Assembly (NCBI GenBank): GCA_902788415.1
Contig: CADAKF010000001.1
Coordinates: 9,592 to 73,591 of the forward strand
Length of the DNA stretch: 64,000 bases
Direction of reading: 5' to 3'
DNA from: an uncultured bacterium
GTDB lineage: Bacteria; Verrucomicrobiota; Kiritimatiellia; RFP12; UBA1067
This document shows positions 9,953-58,906 of the stretch, piece by piece. The notes beneath the pieces were generated by a model, which was not told the origin of the DNA, did not search any database, and worked only from the letters and a program-made list of their open reading frames with translations. Both the position numbers and the translations under genes were made by a program. The number at the start of each line of letters is the position of its first letter. The stretch's first letter is position 1.

Positions 9953-10029
9953 TGGTGGGACCGGGGAGAATCGAACTCCCAACCTCAAGTTTAGGAAACT
10001 CGCGCTCTGTCCAGTTGAGCTACGATCCC
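9953..10029 (-). tRNA. tRNA-Arg (anticodon CCT)
   Basis: Hand-folded cloverleaf: acceptor GGGATCG/CGGTCCC, D-arm GCTC-AACTGGACA-GAGC, anticodon stem CGAGT/ACTTG with loop TTCCTAA, T-arm GGGAG-TTCGATT-CTCCC, encoded CCA. Confidence 0.85.
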
Positions 10030-10037
10030 AGTTAAAT

Positions 10038-12542
10038 TCATTTCTTCGCCTTCACGCCGAGGTCGCTCAGCTTCATCGAGATGACGCGCGAAACGCCCTT
10101 CTCCTGCTGGCTGACACCATACACGAGGTCGCTGCCGGCGATCGTGTGCTGGTTGTGCGTGATGATCAGGAACTGGCTCTGCCGGAGGAACTCCTTGAGC
10201 TGCTCGACGAAGCGGCCGATGTTGGCGTCGTCGAGCGCAGCGTCAAGCTCGTCCAGCATGCAGAACGGCGCCGGCTTGATCATGAAGATCGAGAAGAGGA
10301 GCGCCACAGCGGTCATCGTGCGCTCGCCGCCCGAGAGAAGTGTCACCGACTGCGGACGCTTGCCCGGAGGACGCGCGATGATGTCGATGCCGCATTCAAG
10401 CGGATCCTCCTCGTTCTCCAGGAGGACGAGACGCGCCTCGCCGCCGCCAAAGAGCCGCGTGAACATCGTCTGAAAGTTCTTGTTCGCCTGCTCGAACGTC
10501 CTGTGAAACATGTTGCCCGACGTGTCGTTCAGATTGCCGATCAGTTCCAGGAGCTGCGCCTTCGCAGCAAGAAGGTCCTCCTCCTGTGCCTTCTCCCTCG
10601 CGTAGCGTTCCTCGAGCTCGCGGCACTCGTCGATCGCGACCATATTCACCGGACCGAGCGCGGCGATCTCCGCCTGCAGCCGGCCGACAGTCCCCTCAAG
10701 CTCCTCCATCGGCGGAACAACACCCTTCTTCCACTCCGGATCGGGCTCGCGCATGACCGCGTCGGCGAAAAGGCCGTACTCGTCCTGCAGGTGCTCGTAG
10801 ACGTTCTGGCGGCGCATCGTCGCCTCGGCGGCCTGCACCTCGAGTTTGCCGCGGAAGTCTTTCGCCTGGTCGAGCTCGGCACGGCGGCCGGCGACCTCCT
10901 GGTCTGCCGCCGCGATGCGCTCGAGCATCTCCGCGCGCTTGCCGCGCTCGGCGTTGATCTCGTCAACGAAACTCGCCGCCTTCGCCTTCAGCTCGTCGAG
11001 CTGTGCAAACAGGTCGCCGGACTCCTCGGTCAGGCGGGCAATCGACTCTTCGTAGCCGCGAATACCCTCTTCGCGCGCAGCGACCGTGCGCTCCAGCTCC
11101 TCGCGGCGGTTCTTCGCGACCTCGTTCTGCTGCCCGACGAACGAAAGCTCCTGCTCCATCTGGCTCACGGCGATGCGCTGCTCGGTAAGCTTCTGGGACG
11201 CCGGAATGTTCTTGAGCTCAACGGCGCGAAGCTCGTCCTCCGCCGCTGTCACGACCGCGAGAAGGTCTTCGCGCTTCATCATCGTCGTCACGGTCGTCCC
11301 GGCCTTCCAGGTTTCGACCGCATCGTTGCGGCTGACCTGCGCGTCATTGACGAGCGTGCCCGTGCGCGTCGTGTCCGCCACCTCGCGGCGCCGCGCGGCG
11401 ACCGCTTCGCGGCGGGCGTCGATCTCCTTCTGAAGCGAATCAAACTCCTCTTCGGCCGCGGCAAGCGACTCCTTCGCGGCAGCCAGCGAGTCGGTCAGGA
11501 GCTGCGTCTTCTGCTCCAGCGACTCGGCCTGCATCTTCACCTCTTCGAGCGCCTGCTTCGAACCGGCGATCTCGGCCGTATCGCGCGCGACATAGCCCTT
11601 GTATTCCTCGACGCGCTGGGCGTTGACGCCGATCACCTCGTTCGCACGGCTGTAGGCGCCTTCGGCGGCCGCCTGCTGCGAGGCGAGCGTCTGGAGGCCC
11701 TCCTCAAGCGCGTGGATTTGCTGATGAAGCTCCTGTGCGGACTGCTCGGCCGCCGTCACAACTTCGGTCGCCTCGGCAATCGCCTTGTCAATCTCGTTGC
11801 GGTTCGTCGCGTTCTGCTCGAGCTCCTGATCGTAGCCGTGAATCTTCTGCTTGGAGACATAGATGTCGAGGCCCTTGAGCTGGTCGCGCAGCTCCTTGTA
11901 CTTCTGCGCCTTGCCGACCTGCCGCTGTAGCGAGCCGATCTGCCGCTTCATCTCGCGGAGAACATCCGCCTCCCGGAGAAGGTTCTGCTCGGTCTGCTCG
12001 ATCTTGCGGAGAGCCTCCTTGCGGTCAGACTTGAACTTGGTGATGCCGGCCGCCTCCTCGAACACGGCGCGGCGGTCTTCGGGCTTCGACGAAAGAATCG
12101 CGTCGATCTGGCCCTGCGCCATCACCGAATAGGACGACGTGCCGATGCCCGTGCCCATGAAGAGGTGCTGGACGTCCTTCAGGCGGCACGCCTGCTTGTT
12201 GATGAAATACTCGCCCGAGCCGTCGCGGTAGACGCGGCGGGTGATCGTCACCTCGTGATAGTCGGTGCCGAGCTCCTTCTCGCAGTCGGCGAAGGTGATC
12301 GAGACCTCCGCGAGGCCGAGGGGCTTGCGGGTGTCGGTGCCGTTGAAGACGACGTCGACAAGCTTGGAGCACCGCAGGGCCGTCGGCTTCTGCTCGCCGA
12401 GGACCCAGCGGATTGCATCGGAAACGTTGGACTTACCGCAGCCGTTCGGCCCGACAATGGCGATGAGACCCGGCTCGAACGTGAGTCGGGTCTTGTCGGC
12501 AAAGCTCTTGAAGCCGATGATATCGAGCTGCTTGAGGTACAT
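10038..12542 (-). CDS. smc: SMC-family chromosome segregation ATPase, unusually short (834 aa) with no recognisable hinge
   Basis: N-terminal Walker A GPNGCGKSN; C-terminal LSGGERTMTAVALLFSIFMIKPAPFCMLDELDAALD signature/Walker B; the central region is continuous coiled-coil-like sequence without a Gly-rich hinge. Confidence 0.75.
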   Translation of the reverse strand: MYLKQLDIIGFKSFADKTRLTFEPGLIAIVGPNGCGKSNVSDAIRWVLGEQKPTALRCSKLVDVVFNGTDTRKPLGLAEVSITFADCEKELGTDYHEVTITRRVYRDGSGEYFINKQACRLKDVQHLFMGTGIGTSSYSVMAQGQIDAILSSKPEDRRAVFEEAAGITKFKSDRKEALRKIEQTEQNLLREADVLREMKRQIGSLQRQVGKAQKYKELRDQLKGLDIYVSKQKIHGYDQELEQNATNRNEIDKAIAEATEVVTAAEQSAQELHQQIHALEEGLQTLASQQAAAEGAYSRANEVIGVNAQRVEEYKGYVARDTAEIAGSKQALEEVKMQAESLEQKTQLLTDSLAAAKESLAAAEEEFDSLQKEIDARREAVAARRREVADTTRTGTLVNDAQVSRNDAVETWKAGTTVTTMMKREDLLAVVTAAEDELRAVELKNIPASQKLTEQRIAVSQMEQELSFVGQQNEVAKNRREELERTVAAREEGIRGYEESIARLTEESGDLFAQLDELKAKAASFVDEINAERGKRAEMLERIAAADQEVAGRRAELDQAKDFRGKLEVQAAEATMRRQNVYEHLQDEYGLFADAVMREPDPEWKKGVVPPMEELEGTVGRLQAEIAALGPVNMVAIDECRELEERYAREKAQEEDLLAAKAQLLELIGNLNDTSGNMFHRTFEQANKNFQTMFTRLFGGGEARLVLLENEEDPLECGIDIIARPPGKRPQSVTLLSGGERTMTAVALLFSIFMIKPAPFCMLDELDAALDDANIGRFVEQLKEFLRQSQFLIITHNQHTIAGSDLVYGVSQQEKGVSRVISMKLSDLGVKAKK

Positions 12543-13306
12543 CAGCCCTCGGCTTCGAGTGCGGCGTCGACCTCGTCGGTCGTCTCCATGTTCGTGTAGA
12601 CGTCCTGCGTGTCTTCGAGGTCCTCGAGCATGTCGACGAGCTTGTTGACAGCCTTCGCGACCACCACGTCGGACACGGGGCTCGTCATGTTCGGGACGAG
12701 GCCGATGTTCGAGTTCTCCTCGTCGATCGCAATGCCCGCCGCCTTGATGGCGTCAGAAACCGCCACGAAATCGTTCGGCTGGCACTTCACGGTGAATCCG
12801 CCGTCCTCGCTGACGACGTCCTCCGCGCCCGCCTCGAGGGCGACTTCCATCACCTTGTCCTCAGAAAGACCGTCCGCCGCCGGAATCATGACCTGGCCGA
12901 GCTTGTCGAAGAGACGCGACGCGCTGCCCGGCTTCGCGAGCTCGACACCGTTCTTCTTGAAGACGTTCGAGACCTCGGCCGCCGCACGGTTCTTGTTGTC
13001 CGTAAGGACGCGCACGACGATCGCGACGGAACCCTTGATCGCCTCGTACTGCGCGTCGACCATTTCGGCCGACTCGAGCTCGCCCGTGCCCTTCTTGATG
13101 GCACGCTCGATGTTGTCGTTCGGCATCTGCGCCGCCTTCGCCTTGGCGATGAGCGTGCGGAGCGTCGGGTTGTTGTCGGGATCACCACCCTTCGCCTTCA
13201 CGACAATGGTGATTTCCTTGCCGAGTTTCGAGAAGATCTTTCCCTTCTTCGCATCCGCCGCGCCTTTCGCGCGCTTGATTGTCGCCCAGTGGCTGTGACC
13301 TGACAT
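12542..13306 (-). CDS. yebC: YebC/PmpR family DNA-binding regulator
   Basis: MSGHSHWATIKRAKGAADAKKGKIFSKLGKEI... is the canonical YebC N-terminus. Confidence 0.9.
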   Translation of the reverse strand: MSGHSHWATIKRAKGAADAKKGKIFSKLGKEITIVVKAKGGDPDNNPTLRTLIAKAKAAQMPNDNIERAIKKGTGELESAEMVDAQYEAIKGSVAIVVRVLTDNKNRAAAEVSNVFKKNGVELAKPGSASRLFDKLGQVMIPAADGLSEDKVMEVALEAGAEDVVSEDGGFTVKCQPNDFVAVSDAIKAAGIAIDEENSNIGLVPNMTSPVSDVVVAKAVNKLVDMLEDLEDTQDVYTNMETTDEVDAALEAEG

Positions 13307-32149: not shown

Positions 32150-33228
32150 GGCAGCGCGAAATACGCCGCGTCGTTCCGGCCCTCATGCCGCACTTTCCAG
32201 TCCGGCATCGGCAGACAGGCCAGCGTCTGCCAGGCCATTAAGGGCAAAAGCACCTGCAGCGCAATGAGGGCGGCCAGGCGATTGGGCTGGAGCTCAATCC
32301 GCGAGGCCAGCAGGCAGGCGAAGAACAGCGTCGGCAGGAGAAAGGTTGCCTGGTCCGGGACGAAATAGCGGACGAAGAAAAGGAAATTGACGGCCAGAAG
32401 CGCCCAGACCCATCCGGACGCCCGATCCGCCGGCATCTTTCCCTCACGGCGGCTCCACCAGGCGACCGCCACCGGCGCAAAGAAGCTCATCGCCGCCAAC
32501 GCGAAGTTGAAGGAGGTCAGCACAAGATTTGACGGCAGGAATCCCGCGACTTTCGCCCCGTAGTCGCCAACCAGGACATCAGCCGCACCGCGCGTCGCGA
32601 ACGCCCACAGCCAGCCGCACGCGCCAAGTCCCCACAGCGCCGCGAGCGGAACGGACAACGCAAGCTGCCACCCACGCGCACGGCTGAAAAAGACAGCCGC
32701 ATACAAAGGCGCCGCAAGCAGCGCGAAATTGTGCACCTCGAGATGCACCCCGTTCAGCAGGACCAGCGCCGCGAACCAACGCCAGCGTCCGTCCGCAAGA
32801 AACTTCAGCAGCAGCAGCGTCTCAAAGGCCGTAAAGGCCAGGTTCATCGTCTGCACCTCGGCAAGACAGCTGTTCCACCACAGCATGTGCGAAAGCCCGA
32901 AGATGACCGAGAAGCCGAGACAACGCGTGCACAAGAAGAACCCGCCGACCGATAGGGCGCCGAAAAAGGACGACACGAGCGTCACCTGAAACGGCGTCGA
33001 CGCGACGAGACGGCAGAACGCGACGTACAGCGGATGGGCGTTCGAGAAATGCGGACCACAGATCCAGTCTGACCGATCCAGCACCCACGACTGGAATTCG
33101 GCCGAGTCACCCCAGCCAACGCCCCGCTGCGCCGTCAGCGCGTAAAGGACGGAAAAACCGACGACGAGCGCAAGAAACCGCTCAAGCGGACGGCTGCTGG
33201 ACAGGTACTGACGGATCTGCCGGAGCAA
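32125..33228 (-). CDS. Polytopic membrane protein, possibly a DUF2723/PMT-like glycosyltransferase
   Basis: At least 9 predicted TM helices; RGVGWGDSAEFQSW loop; no confident family. Confidence 0.4.
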   Translation of the reverse strand: MLRQIRQYLSSSRPLERFLALVVGFSVLYALTAQRGVGWGDSAEFQSWVLDRSDWICGPHFSNAHPLYVAFCRLVASTPFQVTLVSSFFGALSVGGFFLCTRCLGFSVIFGLSHMLWWNSCLAEVQTMNLAFTAFETLLLLKFLADGRWRWFAALVLLNGVHLEVHNFALLAAPLYAAVFFSRARGWQLALSVPLAALWGLGACGWLWAFATRGAADVLVGDYGAKVAGFLPSNLVLTSFNFALAAMSFFAPVAVAWWSRREGKMPADRASGWVWALLAVNFLFFVRYFVPDQATFLLPTLFFACLLASRIELQPNRLAALIALQVLLPLMAWQTLACLPMPDWKVRHEGRNDAAYFALPWKVGIAR

Positions 33229-34018
33229 TGGTCACTCCTCTCGTCGGGTTCTTCGCTTGAAACTCCCAGGCGAGCGCCTTGTAGGCCTGCGCGCCCTTGG
33301 AGCGCGAATCGAGAAAGACGACCGGAACGCCCATCGACGGCGCCTCGCTGACGCGCACGTTGCGCGGAATCAGCGTTTCGTAGACCTTCTCTCCGAAGTG
33401 GTTGCGAACCTCATTCATCACGTCAGTCGTCAGCTTCGCGGTGGAGTTGACCATCGTGAAAACGATGCCGTTCAGCTCAAGGTTCGGATTGACGCTCTGG
33501 CGAATGCGTTCGATCGAGCCCGTGATGAGGGCAAGTCCGTCCATCGCAAGATACTCAGCCTGAATGGGAATGAGGACCCCGTCCGTCGCCACGAGCGCCG
33601 AGGTCATCACAATGCCGAGGGACGGCGGACAGTCCAGTAGGATGTAGTCGAACGTCCCCGACTCCTTCACCGGCTGAAGCGCGTCCTTGATCATCGTGAG
33701 CCGGTCCTCGCGCGCACCGAACTCCAGCTCGGCCCCGGCGAGATCGACCTCGGACGGAATCACATTCAGGTTGTCCCACTTGGTTGGCTGAATCACATCC
33801 GCAATCGGCTTTTGCCCCGACAGCACCGCGTACATCGAAACGCCCTGTTGCTTCTCAAGCCCCAACCCGAGCGTCGCGTGCGCCTGGGGATCGAGATCCA
33901 CGACAAGCACGGCCCGCTTGCGCGCCGAAAGTGCCGCGGCAAGGTTCACGACGGTGGTGGTCTTTCCCACGCCGCCCTTCTGATTCGCAATCGCAATGAC
34001 CCTGGTCATCCTATTCAT
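33182..34018 (-). CDS. parA: ParA/Soj-family partition ATPase
   Basis: MNRMTRVIAIANQKGGVGKTTT deviant Walker A; no parB adjacent. Confidence 0.85.
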   Translation of the reverse strand: MNRMTRVIAIANQKGGVGKTTTVVNLAAALSARKRAVLVVDLDPQAHATLGLGLEKQQGVSMYAVLSGQKPIADVIQPTKWDNLNVIPSEVDLAGAELEFGAREDRLTMIKDALQPVKESGTFDYILLDCPPSLGIVMTSALVATDGVLIPIQAEYLAMDGLALITGSIERIRQSVNPNLELNGIVFTMVNSTAKLTTDVMNEVRNHFGEKVYETLIPRNVRVSEAPSMGVPVVFLDSRSKGAQAYKALAWEFQAKNPTRGVTIAPADPSVPVQQPSA

Positions 34019-34062
34019 GCCGTCACACCTCTTAATCTCTTTACCGCTTAACCTCTTAACCG

Positions 34063-34593
34063 CTAAAAGAGCTTCCCTCTCTGCTGCAGCTCCTTGATGT
34101 TCCCGCCCGCGCTGCGGTTCACCTCTCTCAACCACAGCTCCACCAGCGCGACATCCCACGGATCGTCCACGCACTGCACAACCGCGGCAAACTTGTCGTT
34201 CGAGGCGATCACCTCGTCCTTCACGCGCTCGGCGACAACCGAGAGACGGTCTGTCACAATCTGCTCGGAGAAGTTGTCGCTTTTGAGACTATAGCCATAT
34301 TGGAGAATTCGAAGGTTCTCTTCGTTCTCCTTCAGGAACTCGAGATAGGCCCGAGCCTCGTCCCCGAAGCCCTCCGTCTCGATGTCCGACACGTGAGGCG
34401 TGATGACAAGCGGCTGATGTGCCTCAAGGCGACCCTCGCGGACGCGCACCTTGCCCGGATGGTCGTCTAGCTCGGAGATGAGGTGATAGTTGACGAGCGT
34501 GCTTCCGAACGTCTCGAGGCGATGGCTGGGTTCCACGAGGAACCTCGCGCTCTTCGCGGCATACCACCGATCAAAATCCGGATTCGAACTCAT
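34063..34593 (-). CDS. Hypothetical protein
   Basis: 176-aa ORF with coding-like composition; no recognisable motif. Confidence 0.4.
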   Translation of the reverse strand: MSSNPDFDRWYAAKSARFLVEPSHRLETFGSTLVNYHLISELDDHPGKVRVREGRLEAHQPLVITPHVSDIETEGFGDEARAYLEFLKENEENLRILQYGYSLKSDNFSEQIVTDRLSVVAERVKDEVIASNDKFAAVVQCVDDPWDVALVELWLREVNRSAGGNIKELQQRGKLF

Positions 34594-45227: not shown

Positions 45228-46928
45228 TTACGTGTAGCGCAAGACCTCGTCAACGGTCGTATAGCCGTCAAGAATCGAGCGGATTCCGTCCTCGCGCATC
45301 GTGCGCATGCCGAGCTCGCGGGCCTTTTCGCGGATGATGAGCGTCGGCGCACGGTTGTTGACGAGCTCCCGGAGGGGCGACGACATGCGAAGGTACTCAA
45401 AGACGCCCTTGCGGCCCTTATAGCCCGTCCCATTGCAGGTCTTGCAGCCCTTGCCAAAGTAGAACGGACGCCCGCCGATCTGGTCGCGCGTCATCTCGAT
45501 GCGCTCCAGGGTCTCGTCGTCCGGCTCGTACGCCTGCTTGCATTCCTTGCAGCAGGTGCGGACGAGTCGCTGCCCGAGCACACCCTCGAGCGTCGAGGCG
45601 AGCAGATAGGGCGCGACGTTCATGTCCACGAGACGCATCACCGCGCCGGCGGCGTCGTTCGTGTGCAGGGTCGAGAAGACGAAGTGACCCGTCAGGGCCG
45701 CCTGGACAGCGATCTCGGCCGTCTCGAGGTCGCGGATCTCGCCGATCATCATGACGTCGGGGTCCTGACGCAGGAACGCGCGCAGCACCTTCGCGAAGGT
45801 ATTGCCCGCGTGTGCGTCGATCGGCACCTGGACGATGCCGTCCACGTTGTACTCGACCGGCTCCTCGGCGGTCAGGAGCTTCGTGTCGATCTGGTTGATG
45901 CGGCGGAGAACCGAGTAGAGCGTCGTTGTCTTGCCGGAGCCGGTCGGCCCCGTCACGATGAAGATGCCGTTCGGCTTCTCGATGTCCATCGTGATCTGCT
46001 CATAGACATCCTCCGGAAGCCCCACGTTCTCGAGATCGAGCGACGTCGTCGTCTGGTCGAGGATTCGCATGACGACCGACTCGCCGTGCGCCGTCGGCAG
46101 ACAGCTGACGCGAAGGTCGACCGGACGCCCCGCCACGGTGAGCGCGATGCGGCCGTCCTGCGGCACGCGGCGCTCGGCGATGTTGAGGTTTGAGAGGATC
46201 TTGATGCGCGAGATGATCGCGGGCGCCATCTTCACATCCGGCGCCTTCATCTCGTAGAGCGCGCCGTCGACGCGGTAGCGGATCTTGAAGTCATGCTCGA
46301 ACGGCTCAACGTGAATGTCAGCCGCGTGGTCGACGACGCCCTGGTAGAGGACGAGGTTCACAAACTTGACGACGGCAGACGAGTTCGCCGCGCTCTCCAT
46401 GTTGGCGATGTCGTTCGCGTTCGCGCCGACCGCCAGCGTCTCGTCGTCGGACATCCCCTCGCCGAGGGACTTGATCATGTCCGCGACGGACTCGTTCGAG
46501 TCGCCGTAGTACTGGGCGATGCGGTCCATCACGTCCTTCTCGCGGGCGAAGACAAACCGCACCTCCTTCGAGAGCGTGAACAGCATCTCGTCCGAGATGC
46601 GCGGATCGACGAGGTCGAACGTCGCAAGCGTCACGGACGAGTCGTCCGCCGCCACGGGAAAGACGTTGTACATGCGGGCCGTCGAGGCGGGAATCGCCTC
46701 GGTGACCTCGGACTCGATCGTCATCGCGCCGAGATCGATCGCCTCCGCGTCCTGATAGGCGGCCATCGCCGCAAGGAGCGAATCCTCATCGAGGACGCCG
46801 GAGTCAATGATCTGCCGGCGGACGGACTTGTTCTCGGTCTTGGCGAGCTCGGCGATGTCCTTCGCGCCGGCCTCGTCAACGTATCCGTTCTGTATCAGGA
46901 TTTGAAGTATTTGATCCATGGCAACCAC
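45228..46928 (-). CDS. GspE/PilB-family secretion ATPase (paralog 2)
   Basis: N1 domain, Walker A VTGPTGSGKTTTLYSVL, Asp/His boxes, tetracysteine CKECK...CKTCNGTGYKGRKG. Confidence 0.85.
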   Translation of the reverse strand: MVAMDQILQILIQNGYVDEAGAKDIAELAKTENKSVRRQIIDSGVLDEDSLLAAMAAYQDAEAIDLGAMTIESEVTEAIPASTARMYNVFPVAADDSSVTLATFDLVDPRISDEMLFTLSKEVRFVFAREKDVMDRIAQYYGDSNESVADMIKSLGEGMSDDETLAVGANANDIANMESAANSSAVVKFVNLVLYQGVVDHAADIHVEPFEHDFKIRYRVDGALYEMKAPDVKMAPAIISRIKILSNLNIAERRVPQDGRIALTVAGRPVDLRVSCLPTAHGESVVMRILDQTTTSLDLENVGLPEDVYEQITMDIEKPNGIFIVTGPTGSGKTTTLYSVLRRINQIDTKLLTAEEPVEYNVDGIVQVPIDAHAGNTFAKVLRAFLRQDPDVMMIGEIRDLETAEIAVQAALTGHFVFSTLHTNDAAGAVMRLVDMNVAPYLLASTLEGVLGQRLVRTCCKECKQAYEPDDETLERIEMTRDQIGGRPFYFGKGCKTCNGTGYKGRKGVFEYLRMSSPLRELVNNRAPTLIIREKARELGMRTMREDGIRSILDGYTTVDEVLRYT

Positions 46929-46959
46929 GACTAAACGCGAATCGCGAACAGCTAACAGC

Positions 46960-48087
46960 TTAACTGCCGTACCCCTCTTCCTTCAGCTTCTGGACGACGG
47001 ATTCAGGATCCTGCGACTTCGTGATGAGCTCCTCGTAGGAAATGAGCCCCTGCTTGTAGAGGTTGGAGAGCGACGTATCGAGCGTGAACATGCCGTACTT
47101 CGCACCGGTCTGCAGGTCGGACTTGATCATGTTCGTCTTGTTGTCGCGGATGCGCGAGCAGATCGCGTCCGTGCGCGTCATGATCTCGAACGCCGCGACA
47201 CGCCCGTGCACCTCGCCGTTCGCGTCGAGCTTCGGCAGGAGAATCTGCGAGATGACGGCCTGCAGGCCCGCCGCGAGCTGCGTGCGGATCTGCGCCTGCT
47301 GGTTCATCGGGAACGCGTCGACGATACGGTCGATCGTCTCCGCGGAGCCGGTCGTGTGCAGGGTGCCGAAAACGAGGTGTCCCGTTTCGGCCGCGGTAAT
47401 GGCCGCCGCGATCGTCTCGAGGTCGCGCATTTCGCCGACGAGAATCACGTCCGGGTCCTGGCGGAGCGCGCGGCGGATCGCCTCGGCGAAGCTCGGGACG
47501 TCGTCACCGACCTCGCGCTGTGTGACGATGGACTTCTTCGACTCGTGGTAGAATTCGATCGGGTCCTCAATCGTGATGATGTGGACGCTGCGCTCCTGGT
47601 TGATGACGTCGATCATCGAGGCGAGCGTCGTCGACTTACCGGACCCCGTCGGGCCCGTGACGAGGATCAGCCCGCGCGGCTTGAAGAGAAGCTCGCGGAC
47701 CGTGTTCGGCAGACCGATCTGCTCGAGCGTCAGGAGCCCCGAGGGAATCTGGCGGAGGACGGCGCCGTAGCGCTTCCTCTCCTTGAAGACGGACACACGG
47801 AAGCGCGTGCCGTCCGGGTGCGCGAGCGCAAAGTCCGCGCCACCGTTCGTCTCGAGCTCCTTCATGAGCTTCTCGATGTCGGGCTTGCGCTTGGGATCGT
47901 TCTCGGCGATGCCGTTCACGAACTCGGTGACGAGCGCCTGGCTCTCGTCGTCGTTCATCGGCTCCTCCGCAAGCGGCAGAAGCTCGCCGTGCACGCGCAA
48001 CAGCGGCGGCATGCGCGCGCGGATGTGGAGGTCGCTGCCCCCTTCGTCGATGATCGCCTGCAACAGCTCGTCTTTGTGGAATTGCAT
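46960..48087 (-). CDS. pilT: Twitching-motility/retraction ATPase PilT
   Basis: MQFHKDELLQAIIDEGGSDLHI..., Walker A LVTGPTGSGKST, AIRRALRQDPDVILVGEMRD; start at M114 of the track ORF, overlapping the upstream stop (TGATG). Confidence 0.9.
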   Translation of the reverse strand: MQFHKDELLQAIIDEGGSDLHIRARMPPLLRVHGELLPLAEEPMNDDESQALVTEFVNGIAENDPKRKPDIEKLMKELETNGGADFALAHPDGTRFRVSVFKERKRYGAVLRQIPSGLLTLEQIGLPNTVRELLFKPRGLILVTGPTGSGKSTTLASMIDVINQERSVHIITIEDPIEFYHESKKSIVTQREVGDDVPSFAEAIRRALRQDPDVILVGEMRDLETIAAAITAAETGHLVFGTLHTTGSAETIDRIVDAFPMNQQAQIRTQLAAGLQAVISQILLPKLDANGEVHGRVAAFEIMTRTDAICSRIRDNKTNMIKSDLQTGAKYGMFTLDTSLSNLYKQGLISYEELITKSQDPESVVQKLKEEGYGS

Positions 48088-49766
48088 CAGTTCGCGTCTC
48101 CCATGGTGACTCTCAGGACCTCGGCGAGGGACGTCATCCCGCTCGCCACCTTCAGCATGCCGTCTTCGCGCAGCGTCCGCATGCCCATCTCGCGGGCACG
48201 CTGCCGGAGCAAGGTCGCCGGCGCGTGGTCGAAGATGAGCCGCTGGATCGTATCGTCGACCTTGAAGATCTCGAAGATGCCCTTCCGGCCCTTGTAGCCG
48301 GTCTTGCCGCACCGGTCGCAGCCCGCGCCGTGGTACATCGTGTCGGGCACGGTCGCGTTCGTCCCGCTCGCAAGGCCCGTCAGCATCCTGATCTCGCGCT
48401 CGGTCGGCGTGTAGCTCGTCTTGCACGTCTCGCAGATGGCGCGCACGAGACGCTGGGCCATCGCCGCGCGGAGCGCGGAGGCCACGAGGAATGGTTTGAC
48501 GCCGATGTCGAGGAGTCGCGTGACGGCGGACGGCGCATCGTTCGTGTGCAGCGTCGAGAAGACGAGGTGGCCCGTGAGGGCCGCCTCCATCGCGATGTCG
48601 GCCGTCTCCGCGTCGCGGATCTCGCCGATCATCACAATGTTCGGGGCCTGGCGCAGGATCGAGCGGAGCGCCGCCGAGAAGTCGAGGCCGACGTCCTTGT
48701 TGACCTGCACCTGGTTGATGCCGCTCATCTGGTATTCGACCGGATCCTCGACCGTGATGAGCTTCTTGTCGGGCGTGTTAATCTGACCAAGACAGGCATA
48801 GAGCGTCGTCGTCTTGCCCGAACCGGTCGGCCCCGTCACGAGCACCACGCCGTCGGGGAGCTTGATGAGCTTTTCGAACGTCGTCTGGTCGTCGGAGAGA
48901 AAGCCAAGCTGCGGCAGGCCGAGCGAAAGGTTCGACTTGTCAAGGATTCGCATGACGATCGACTCGCCGTGATTCGTCGGCACCGACGAGACGCGCAGGT
49001 CGAGATCGCGCCCGCCGACCGTAATCTGGATGCGGCCGTCCTGCGGAATGCGCTTCTCGGAGATCTTCATCTTCGACATGATCTTGAAGCGCGAGAGAAT
49101 CGCGCCCTGCAGACGCTTCGGCGGCGAGTCCATCTTGCGGAGCGCGCCGTCGATGCGGTAGCGGACGCGAAACTCCTTCTCCATCGGCTCGATGTGGATG
49201 TCGGACGCCTTCATCTTGATCGCCGTGGTGATGATCATGTTGGCGAGCTTGATGACCGCGCCGTCGTCGCCCACGGCGGCGGCGTCGCCCAGACCCTCCT
49301 CGTCGCGCGTCGAGACGGTGGACTCCTCCTCGGACGGATAGAGCTTCGCCATCGCGGCCTTCACCTCGGCGAGAGGCGACAGGACCGTCTGGACGTCTTT
49401 CCCGGAAAGGACATAGCGGAGCGAGTCAACCGCGTCATAGCCCATCGGATCGATGAGCGCCACCGTAACGGAGCTCTCGTCCGCCACGACCGGGACGACG
49501 CCGTACTTCTTGGCGATATCAGCCGAAATCGCCTTCGCCGCCTCCTCGTTGATGGCAGAGGCATCGAGATGGCAGTACTTGAGGCCGAACTGGTCGGCAA
49601 TCGTGCCAAGAACCGTGTCCTCGTCCAGTGCGCCGCCCGCCACCAGGACGTCGAGCGTCGTCTCGTTCTCCGCCTTCATCGAAGACGCGGCGGTCTGAAC
49701 CTGCTCCGCGGTCAGATACCCGCGCTCGGTCAGAAGCTGAAGGACATACTCGTCGTTACTTGTCAT
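48087..49766 (-). CDS. GspE/PilB-family secretion/pilus-assembly ATPase (paralog 1)
   Basis: Walker A VTGPTGSGKTTTLYACL; tetracysteine CETCK...CDRCGKTGYKGRKG; GSPII N-domain. Confidence 0.85.
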   Translation of the reverse strand: MTSNDEYVLQLLTERGYLTAEQVQTAASSMKAENETTLDVLVAGGALDEDTVLGTIADQFGLKYCHLDASAINEEAAKAISADIAKKYGVVPVVADESSVTVALIDPMGYDAVDSLRYVLSGKDVQTVLSPLAEVKAAMAKLYPSEEESTVSTRDEEGLGDAAAVGDDGAVIKLANMIITTAIKMKASDIHIEPMEKEFRVRYRIDGALRKMDSPPKRLQGAILSRFKIMSKMKISEKRIPQDGRIQITVGGRDLDLRVSSVPTNHGESIVMRILDKSNLSLGLPQLGFLSDDQTTFEKLIKLPDGVVLVTGPTGSGKTTTLYACLGQINTPDKKLITVEDPVEYQMSGINQVQVNKDVGLDFSAALRSILRQAPNIVMIGEIRDAETADIAMEAALTGHLVFSTLHTNDAPSAVTRLLDIGVKPFLVASALRAAMAQRLVRAICETCKTSYTPTEREIRMLTGLASGTNATVPDTMYHGAGCDRCGKTGYKGRKGIFEIFKVDDTIQRLIFDHAPATLLRQRAREMGMRTLREDGMLKVASGMTSLAEVLRVTMGDAN

Positions 49767-58507: not shown

Positions 58508-58906
58508 TCAGGGTTTCATGAACAGGGGATGGATCTGCGCATTCTGGTCGAACGAGTACGTTCCGCGGGCTCCGGCGTCCTTCCCGATTCGCGCCAGCAG
58601 ATAATCCGAGAAGTCCGCCTTGCCGTCCCGATAGTCGCCAAGCGCGCCGCGCACGAGGTCGCGGTGCTCGATCTCCAGGTTATCTATGCCAAGGATCGTC
58701 GTCAGGACTTCGACAAGCTTGTCCTTGGACTGCCGGTAGCCGCGCCCCAAGACCCAGAGCGTTTCGCACAGCGCAATGCAGCTGATGAAGCCCTTATTGC
58801 CACGGGTGATCTCCTTCTCGAAAATGCGCGTCGCCGCTTTCGCCTGAATCGGATCGTCCTGGACGATGTAGCGGACAACGACGTTCGTATCCAGCGCAAC
58901 CATCAA
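58508..58906 (-). CDS. vapC: PIN-domain toxin VapC
   Basis: MMVALDTNVVVRY... with acidic residues at D6, E48 and D97-like positions; 4-nt overlap with the upstream antitoxin. Confidence 0.8.
   Translation of the reverse strand: MMVALDTNVVVRYIVQDDPIQAKAATRIFEKEITRGNKGFISCIALCETLWVLGRGYRQSKDKLVEVLTTILGIDNLEIEHRDLVRGALGDYRDGKADFSDYLLARIGKDAGARGTYSFDQNAQIHPLFMKP

Follow-up and report, generated by a model that had tools for sequence, protein, structure and literature searches.

The stretch of DNA analyzed here (the window; 64,000 nucleotides of contig CADAKF010000001.1, from an uncultured bacterium of the Kiritimatiellia) carries, next to a gene of the yebC/TACO1 family, an smc gene whose product is only 834 amino acids (aa) long. 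The gene lies on the minus strand; the sequence-only reading had given no strand. The whole protein scored 811.6 bits against the NCBIfam model TIGR02168 (SMC_prok_B), the cutoff of which is 567.35. The match was split into two stretches, the first of them aligning aa 2 to 404 with positions 1 to 404 of the 1181 in the model, and a match to Pfam SMC_N (1.3e-67) covered aa 2 to 818. By motif scan, the Walker A motif (GPNGCGKS, aa 31 to 38) and the Q-loop (AQG, aa 142 to 144) were located in the N-terminal half of the ATPase head, and the signature motif (LSGGE, aa 736 to 740), Walker B (FCMLDE, aa 760 to 765), D-loop, and H-loop in the C-terminal half. Every catalytic motif was invariant in an alignment of hinge-less and hinge-bearing relatives. 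With phmmer, both head halves matched the solved heads of Bacillus subtilis Smc (5xg3 and 3zgx; E value of ~1e-127), colinearly for aa 1 to 219 and over aa 623 to 827 for the C-terminal part. The description of the ATPase halves as canonical in the sequence-only reading is confirmed, since the Walker A, signature, and Walker B motifs that it quoted were all found, together with the Q-, D-, and H-loops.

No match to the Pfam hinge domain SMC_hinge (PF06470) was obtained for the 834-aa protein even at an E value of ≤1, the motif scan found no Gly-rich motif at the apex, and no CxxC occurs anywhere in the protein, the only cysteines being at positions 35, 58, 87, 119, 640, 717, and 761. The earlier statements that a zinc-hook CxxC and a Gly-rich hinge motif are missing were thereby borne out. 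The accompanying claim that no hinge is recognizable holds for domain models and not for homology, as ~30 residues (392 to 421) are a homologous vestige of the last hinge strands and of the passage from hinge to helix. An exhaustive search of cluster representatives (P numbers) identified, as the nearest protein outside the clade, P0121, a canonical Kiritimatiellia Smc of 1188 aa, which is 63% identical to the window protein, colinear with it over residues 1 to 400, and has its SMC_hinge match at 525 to 630 (Pfam); ~80 more relatives of 1180 to 1225 aa carry PF06470.

The deletions were mapped by multiple and pairwise alignments and by profile-profile comparison (hhalign). Window residues 1 to 393, 394 to 440, and 441 to 834 correspond to P0121 residues 1 to 393, 641 to 687, and 795 to 1188, respectively. 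The first missing segment, P0121 residues 394 to 640, comprises 247 aa (~115 aa of the distal N-terminal arm [N-arm] and ~132 aa of the hinge) and the second, residues 688 to 794, comprises 107 aa of the C-terminal arm (C-arm); their sum, 354 aa, is the difference between 1188 and 834. The losses from the two arms (115 and 107 aa) are matched in size, and therefore the helices can still pair. Among the hallmarks of SMC_prok_B, the protein has a score above the equivalog cutoff, the full set of ABC-type head motifs, and a long antiparallel coiled coil with a predicted head-proximal joint, and lacks the central PF06470 hinge domain with its conserved glycine motif. By descent it is an orthologue of Smc, its architecture is non-canonical, and we have filed it accordingly and not as a canonical family member because PF06470 and the G-rich motif are absent and only the last ~30 to 47 hinge-derived residues persist.

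Table 1. Coordinates of the smc gene, its parts, and the adjoining yebC gene in the window
Feature	Position	Strand	Basis and remarks
smc	10038..12542	-	834 codons plus stop; stop codon 10038-10040, ATG 12540-12542; open reading frame list and translation
N-terminal half of ATPase head (~aa 1-170)	12033..12542	-	Walker A, Q-loop; motif scan, phmmer
N-terminal arm helix (~aa 171-393)	11364..12032	-	Colinear with P0121 171-393; distal ~115 aa of ancestral N-arm gone
Vestigial hinge, predicted four-stranded beta-meander cap (~aa 392-421; TRTGTLVNDAQVSRNDAVETWKAGTTVTTM)	11280..11369	-	AlphaFold2 apex model, hhalign, conservation
C-terminal arm helix (~aa 422-665)	10548..11279	-	Includes predicted joint break at ~590-635; ~107 aa of ancestral C-arm gone
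C-terminal half of ATPase head (~aa 666-834)	10041..10547	-	Signature, Walker B, D-loop, H-loop; motif scan, phmmer
yebC/TACO1-family gene	12542..13306	-	Upstream of smc; Pfam PF01709, PF20772

The P0121 segment FVTKDGGVVRADGISEVW aligned with IATLDGELISGRGAITGG of the Thermotoga maritima hinge structure 1GXL, a segment that in hinge structures is the last beta hairpin and bears, at the dimer interface, the conserved glycine motif. Its counterpart in the window protein is LVNDAQVSRNDAVETW, in which the glycines are replaced. Comparison of the apex profile of the 834-aa class with the full-hinge profile by hhalign matched window residues 405 to 440 with P0121 residues 652 to 687 (probability of 90.7%, E value of 1.2e-6). 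The apex motif TG.LV.D..V.R.G..E.W.AGT.VTT was conserved in 24 species, and its W412 was invariant in the aligned hinge-less and hinge-bearing relatives alike. By these matches the cap is a hinge remnant, derived from the last hinge strands.

A full-length AlphaFold2 (AF2) model, built from a 39-row alignment, consisted of a helix at 154 to 394, a beta hairpin at 401 to 412, a helix at 420 to 589, breaks at 590 to 635, and a helix at 636 to 698. The predicted local distance difference test score (pLDDT) was 80 to 93 in the arms and reached 93 in the N-arm helix. A focused model of the apex (aa 340 to 480, 56 rows; mean pLDDT of 90.9, predicted template modeling score of 0.71) resolved a helix at 342 to 389, antiparallel strands at 392 to 396, 401 to 405, 408 to 412, and 417 to 421, and then a helix at 424 to 479. 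The central region had been described as a continuous coiled coil; this applies to the long helices at 154 to 394 and 420 to 698 and not to the predicted beta cap at ~392 to 421 or the interruption at ~590 to 635. The joint of B. subtilis Smc (residues 922 to 1011; PMC5526789) falls on window aa 570 to 659 at a 352-residue offset, and the modeled interruption of the C-terminal helix is a probable SMC joint. A Foldseek comparison of the apex model with the PDB, dominated by the coiled coil, gave no significant match. The closest topologies were those of prefoldin subunits (2zdi and 1fxk) and V-ATPase subunit D, the prefoldin match having an E value of 0.05, a template modeling score of ~0.65, and 7% identity. 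Prefoldin subunits are coiled-coil hairpins capped by beta hairpins, with a topology like that of the cap, a likeness that is an analogy only and not homology; the prefoldin beta hairpins mediate oligomerization.

The sequence-only reading had offered two explanations of the short gene, a naturally minimized SMC and an assembly collapsed across the coiled-coil repeats. The second would mean that ~1 kb was lost in repetitive sequence and that the true gene is a canonical smc of ~1190 aa. Coiled-coil genes are indeed low in complexity, the source is a metagenomic short-read assembly, and some related loci (L001, L049, and L052) have broken or frameshifted smc open reading frames (ORFs). Against this, the identical 834-aa protein was encoded on at least 21 contigs from different samples, each assembled independently (SPAdes, MEGAHIT, and other scaffolds); the six contigs shown all have the order yebC-smc-GH31-aldose epimerase, as in the window. 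More than 120 protein clusters with 84 to 100% identity had lengths of 830 to 838 aa. When each species was represented by a single genome, the scan gave 80 loci (L001 to L080), nearly all from gut, rumen, or fecal Kiritimatiellia metagenome-assembled genomes (MAGs), and 46 of them had complete ORFs of 831 to 839 aa; orthologues of 832 to 836 aa were present in ~46 of the species-representative MAGs. Orthologues with 78 to 91% protein identity and a synonymous divergence (dS) of ~1.3 kept both the length and the junction unchanged, discrete intermediate classes retain homologous remnants, and the junction codes for a conserved cap that is predicted to fold with confidence. The short smc is due neither to chance nor to assembly error, and the collapse has been effectively refuted by this recurrence, by selection on the gene, by the SMC_prok_B score above the curated cutoff, and by the ordered intermediate lengths in sister species; except for the last point, the same evidence supports natural minimization.

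As to the defective loci, the smc ORF of L049 (10001-13498) is frameshifted close to the C terminus and reads into downstream sequence (1165 aa), and those of L001 and L052 are interrupted; misassembly of MAGs with low coverage, or an occasional pseudogene, is the probable cause. Contigs with a Kiritimatiellia-type smc were also found in bins (L016, L019, L024/L036, L042, L043, L053, and L077) labeled Methanomethylophilaceae, Faecalibacterium, Muribaculaceae, Lachnospira, Azospirillum, Alistipes, and Barnesiella, probably through bin contamination or mislabeling.

The ratio of nonsynonymous to synonymous substitution rates (dN/dS), determined by the Nei-Gojobori method as a sum for eight pairs of divergent genes of 834 codons, was 0.14 for the whole gene, with a dS of ~1.3, which is near saturation. 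It was lowest in the N-terminal (0.057) and C-terminal (0.075) halves of the head, 0.18 in the arms, and 0.39 in the apex or cap. Since dN/dS is low while synonymous divergence is near saturation, the gene has been kept intact and constrained over a long divergence. These values bear on the idea that the gene is a decaying relic, inactivated by the loss of its hinge, with chromosome organization taken over by some other system, such as MksBEF. The hinge is, by the textbook, essential for SMC dimerization, and the cap does evolve faster than the remainder of the protein. Yet the ORF is intact in ~65 complete orthologues, the dN/dS of the heads (0.06 to 0.08) and arms was obtained at saturated synonymous divergence, all catalytic motifs are invariant, the matched deletions of the two arms preserve helix pairing, and ScpA itself is conserved in the clade at 86 to 96% identity. 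We consider decay very unlikely.

Sister species carry hinge-reduced forms of several lengths, and none of the 1099-, 920-, 886-, and 834-aa classes gave a Pfam hinge match at an E value of ≤1. In the ~1099-aa class the arms have their full length and the hinge remnant is ~65 aa. The arms of the ~920-aa class are ~15 to 20 aa longer than those of the 834-aa class, and in its remnant of ~60 aa the central alpha-beta element of the hinge is still visible. The ~886-aa class has the C-arm junction of the 834-aa class and a remnant ~50 aa larger, and the 834-aa class has arms each ~110 aa shorter than those of P0121 and a remnant of ~30 aa. In a neighbor-joining tree the hinge-reduced proteins of all classes formed one clade (100/100 bootstrap replicates), sister to the hinge-bearing P0121 (100/100). 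Within it, the 834-aa class was never monophyletic in the bootstrap, the 920-aa class falling inside it in 100/100 replicates, even though the 920-aa class retains ancestral sequence of arm and hinge that is gone from the 834-aa forms. This nesting suggests that alleles recombined or were transferred between species, or that truncation occurred repeatedly. A single origin followed by allele exchange appears more likely than repeated identical deletions, because the junctions are identical in all 834-aa forms. The tree was also considered as a guide to the order of the truncation events and gave no decision, the 834-aa class not being monophyletic and the region-wise identities being nearly star-like. 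Other short Smc-like representatives, 38 to 46% identical to the query, were P0146 (988 aa), P0233 (960 aa), P0235 (985 aa), P0236 (922 aa), P0238 (948 aa), and P0228 (829 aa), most of them singleton clusters; a Pfam hinge match was absent from the first five and partial in P0228. Hinge reduction may thus have occurred naturally in several lineages, as far as these sequences indicate.

The lengths of the arms were compared with those known to be permitted. With boundaries of our own estimate, set to give arms of ~344 aa for P0121 and B. subtilis Smc, the arms of the window protein are ~226 aa (N-terminal) and ~243 aa (C-terminal), a mean of ~235 aa. Natural prokaryotic Smc proteins have arm-length modes of 238, 341, and 515 aa, and B. 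subtilis mini-Smc is functional with arms of 253 to 267 aa, viability recurring with a period of ~91 aa (PMC5344682). By these sequence-based estimates, each arm is shorter by about a third, or about one superhelical period of the coiled coil, and falls near the natural 238-aa mode; the loss of about one period per arm therefore lands on a known permitted length, as the rule of quantized arm length has it.

No gene for scpA, scpB, ParB, or a second SMC-like protein was found in the 64-kb window. The statement that scpA and scpB are not adjacent to smc is correct for the window and misleading as a sign of their absence, since both lie ~600 bp downstream of an 836-aa smc in another species. There (L060), a single contig holds smc, a response regulator gene, scpA (PF02616, 4e-34), and scpB (PF04079, 4.2e-44), and the Smc is 85% identical to the window protein. 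ScpA homologues at the identity given above made up more than 120 clusters, and ScpB followed in every context read; on this sequence evidence ScpA and ScpB persist in the clade. The ScpA variants P0435 and P0505 were considered as the window's own ScpA and set aside, their exact-protein matches being in other assemblies than those with the window Smc. The ScpB proteins of the clade are 279 to 294 aa long (L060:6815-7739, L087:6815-7654, and L094:1797-2681; typical ScpB, ~200 aa), and their genes are followed by LysM-domain genes.

In PADLOC the protein also matched defense-system SMCs, namely mad3 (5.4e-70, 235 bits, C-terminal half only), LmuB (1.5e-24, 85 bits), and JetC (26 bits), as it would if it belonged to a system such as Wadjet (JetC), Lamassu (LmuB), or MADS (mad3-like) and were no chromosomal condensin. 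The scores of 235 and 85 bits are, however, far under the Smc equivalog score of 812 bits; genes for a partner nuclease, a methylase, or JetABD are absent from the surroundings, the neighbors being yebC, rsmE, a tRNA gene, and glycosidase genes; smc is close to scpAB in L060; and the gene occurs in essentially every sampled species of the clade. Neither a patchy, strain-variable distribution nor co-localized defense genes were seen. A role in defense is accordingly highly improbable.

We think it likely that the 834-aa protein is a working, evolutionarily reduced Smc subunit of a mini Smc-ScpAB chromosome-organizing complex in gut and rumen Kiritimatiellia. Of two matched deletions, one took ~115 aa from the distal N-arm and ~132 aa from the hinge and the other took ~107 aa from the C-arm, and a ~30-aa beta-sheet cap from the last hinge strands was left at the tip of the arms. 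The heads, together with the kleisin ScpA and the kite protein ScpB, would still make a core for DNA loading and translocation, and the arms, short and rigid, would still pass on the ATPase cycle, as those of the engineered B. subtilis mini-Smc do. The two Smc chains might be joined at the tip through the beta cap, through arm-arm alignment, or through both, with the caps pairing by edge strands as at the canonical hinge interface or the prefoldin tips. If the tips are so joined, the doughnut hinge and its proposed role as a bypass gate would be dispensed with. That the ~30-residue beta-meander is itself a new minimal SMC dimerization module, with two caps paired by their edge strands, we put forward tentatively and with more doubt than confidence. 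Were it true, the protein would form a natural Smc-ScpAB loop extruder with a smaller lumen and with neither a doughnut hinge nor the proposed bypass gate of that hinge for single-stranded DNA/RNA. More radically, the tips might stay wholly unjoined, and the complex would then function with its SMC ring not closed.

An open tip is also part of another explanation, in which the protein is a repurposed SMC-like ATPase that does not close a ring, either tethering or repairing DNA in the manner of RecN or Rad50 or forming an open V- or rod-shaped Smc-ScpAB held by heads and kleisin. RecN dimerizes without a hinge and so provides a precedent, no dimerization domain is recognizable in the window protein, and the cap is small and relatively variable. 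For the similarly hinge-less SMCs of marine Actinobacteria, the authors speculated on a different function or DNA-binding mode (PMC12153180). The family scores speak against repurposing, at 812 bits for SMC_prok_B versus 66 for Rad50 (all Rad50 models, ≤66 bits; cutoffs, 700 to 1087) and 39 for RecN (TIGR00634, 38.6 bits; cutoff, 407.85), itself a protein of ~550 aa with a short coiled coil. So do the retention of the predicted joint, of the head features, and, in the clade, of the ScpAB partners, the position of the arm length on a functional Smc mode, and the housekeeping context of the gene, which is not one of repair or defense. We regard repurposing as unlikely, though less so than decay.

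Several points weigh against a working mini Smc-ScpAB. The proposed dimerization through the cap derives from models of the monomer, and the cap is the least constrained part of the 834-aa protein (dN/dS of 0.39); in the 920-aa class, moreover, the otherwise invariant Trp is Phe. The ScpAB genes are not in the window and are not linked to the window's own genome. The heads were poorly modeled by full-length AF2 (pLDDT of <50, shallow alignment), for which reason the sequence matches to solved heads were used in their place. Beside a second condensin (MksBEF, MukBEF, or a canonical Smc), if present, the protein would be dispensable or could take up a different role. Finally, the hinge has been proposed to be a selective gate for the bypass of tethered obstacles, and SMCs whose hinge has no channel tend to have longer arms (PMC12647877). 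The arms here are shorter despite the loss of the channel, and therefore function may be altered.

Concerning the neighborhood of the gene, the yebC stop codon overlaps the smc start codon (TGATG, 12540-12544, minus strand), an arrangement found in six independent contigs. The overlap suggests co-transcription or translational coupling, and yebC and smc are probably, to judge from the sequence, one transcription unit in this species. In other species smc is joined in like manner to other upstream genes, among them a 337-aa ORF in L012 and L065. Synteny was tried as an orthology test and abandoned; it is uninformative beyond the species level because the neighbors of smc differ between species, the upstream gene being common only to L012 and L065. 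Gene order around smc is barely kept even among species whose Smc proteins are 78 to 90% identical, which indicates that the genomes of the clade are heavily rearranged. On the minus strand, like smc, a tRNA-Arg(CCT) gene (9953-10029) follows the smc stop codon at a distance of 8 nucleotides.

Elsewhere in the window, a ParA/MinD-type ATPase gene (33182-34174, minus strand) has no adjoining ParB gene. Neither a parS site (≤2 mismatches) nor ParB was found in the window or the fetched loci, which make up a small part of each genome. The block of Lnt, YchJ, ParA-like, and GT2 genes to which the ParA/MinD-type gene belongs also occurs in a related species (L087), where, unlike in the window, it precedes scpAB. 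Three genes for T2SSE/PilB-type secretion ATPases (566, 488, and 559 aa) stand in a row at 45228-49766 (minus strand), the last two ORFs overlapping as called. A PIN-domain ORF of 132 aa (58508-58906, minus strand), which directly follows a radical-SAM methylthiotransferase-like gene on its 3' side, could be what remains of a toxin-antitoxin system.

From bacteria to humans the SMC hinge is conserved, and the roles ascribed to it are in dimerization, DNA binding, DNA entry, and, lately, obstacle bypass as a gate. A natural lineage in which the hinge was lost and the arms were shortened while ScpAB was kept under purifying selection amounts to an independent evolutionary test of the B. subtilis engineering, and the Kiritimatiellia Smc shows that the canonical hinge architecture is not universally required. 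The 1188-, 1099-, 920-, 886-, and 834-aa forms would be a natural deletion series on the contributions of hinge and arm length if either reading of the tip is true, and for biochemistry the intermediate forms of the sister species are constructs that nature has already made. Annotation is affected as well. The hinge-bearing P0121, P0297, and P0346 are named "chromosome segregation protein SMC" by NCBI. The hinge-less P0033 and P0374 are named only "AAA family ATPase," though the 834-aa protein passes the TIGR02168 cutoff, and therefore automated surveys could wrongly score genomes as being without Smc.

Among the known systems closest to the window protein is B. subtilis Smc-ScpAB, with which it shares the head sequence, the ATPase motifs, the joint-like break, the antiparallel intramolecular coiled coil, the ScpA and ScpB partners (in the clade), and the housekeeping chromosomal context. 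It differs in having no doughnut hinge (~132 of ~157 hinge residues are gone and the glycine motif is lost), in arms that are each ~110 aa shorter (~235 versus 344 aa), and in total length (834 versus ~1186 aa). Engineered B. subtilis mini-Smc and Smc(Zn-hook) show that arms, which can be shortened in steps of ~100 aa, stay functional when cut by about one period of ~91 to 99 aa and that the hinge fold is replaceable, growth being normal with the Rad50 zinc hook in place of the hinge (PMC5344682). In one such construct, smc(1-398, Zn hook, 773-1186) (Burmann et al. 2017; PMC5344682), the boundaries are close to those of the window protein (1-393, 641-687, and 795-1188 in P0121 numbering); the likeness is one of boundaries only. 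Whereas the engineered forms keep a strong dedicated dimerizer, be it hinge or zinc hook, the window protein has only the 30-aa beta cap and no metal-binding motif.

RecN and Rad50/SbcC resemble the window protein in having an SMC-like head and a coiled coil and no SMC hinge. Rad50/SbcC, however, dimerizes through a CxxC zinc hook, which the window protein does not have, and its partner is Mre11/SbcD rather than ScpAB. MukB, the JetC proteins of Wadjet II/III, and Acetobacter Smc have, like the window protein, lost the hinge channel (PMC12647877). In those proteins the hinge is still a folded dimer and the arms are longer (e.g., 511 versus 330 aa), whereas in the window protein the hinge fold is absent and the arms are shorter. 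This goes against the reported trend of channel loss with longer arms and is the surprise for specialists.

Hinge-less SMCs as such are not new, because an abundant monophyletic clade of them has been reported earlier, with AlphaFold models, from marine Actinobacteria metagenomes (Environ Microbiome 2025, PMC12153180). Those proteins likewise consist of head and coiled coil and lack both a hinge domain and a CxxC; the report contains no intermediates, remnant mapping, arm-length analysis, or evidence on partners or context. Since phylum and habitat differ, the Kiritimatiellia are an independent second lineage of hinge loss. No mention of Smc architecture in Kiritimatiellota was found in the literature searched. 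What the Kiritimatiellia add to the marine case is the graded series of intermediates, the mapped vestige of the hinge, and ScpAB.

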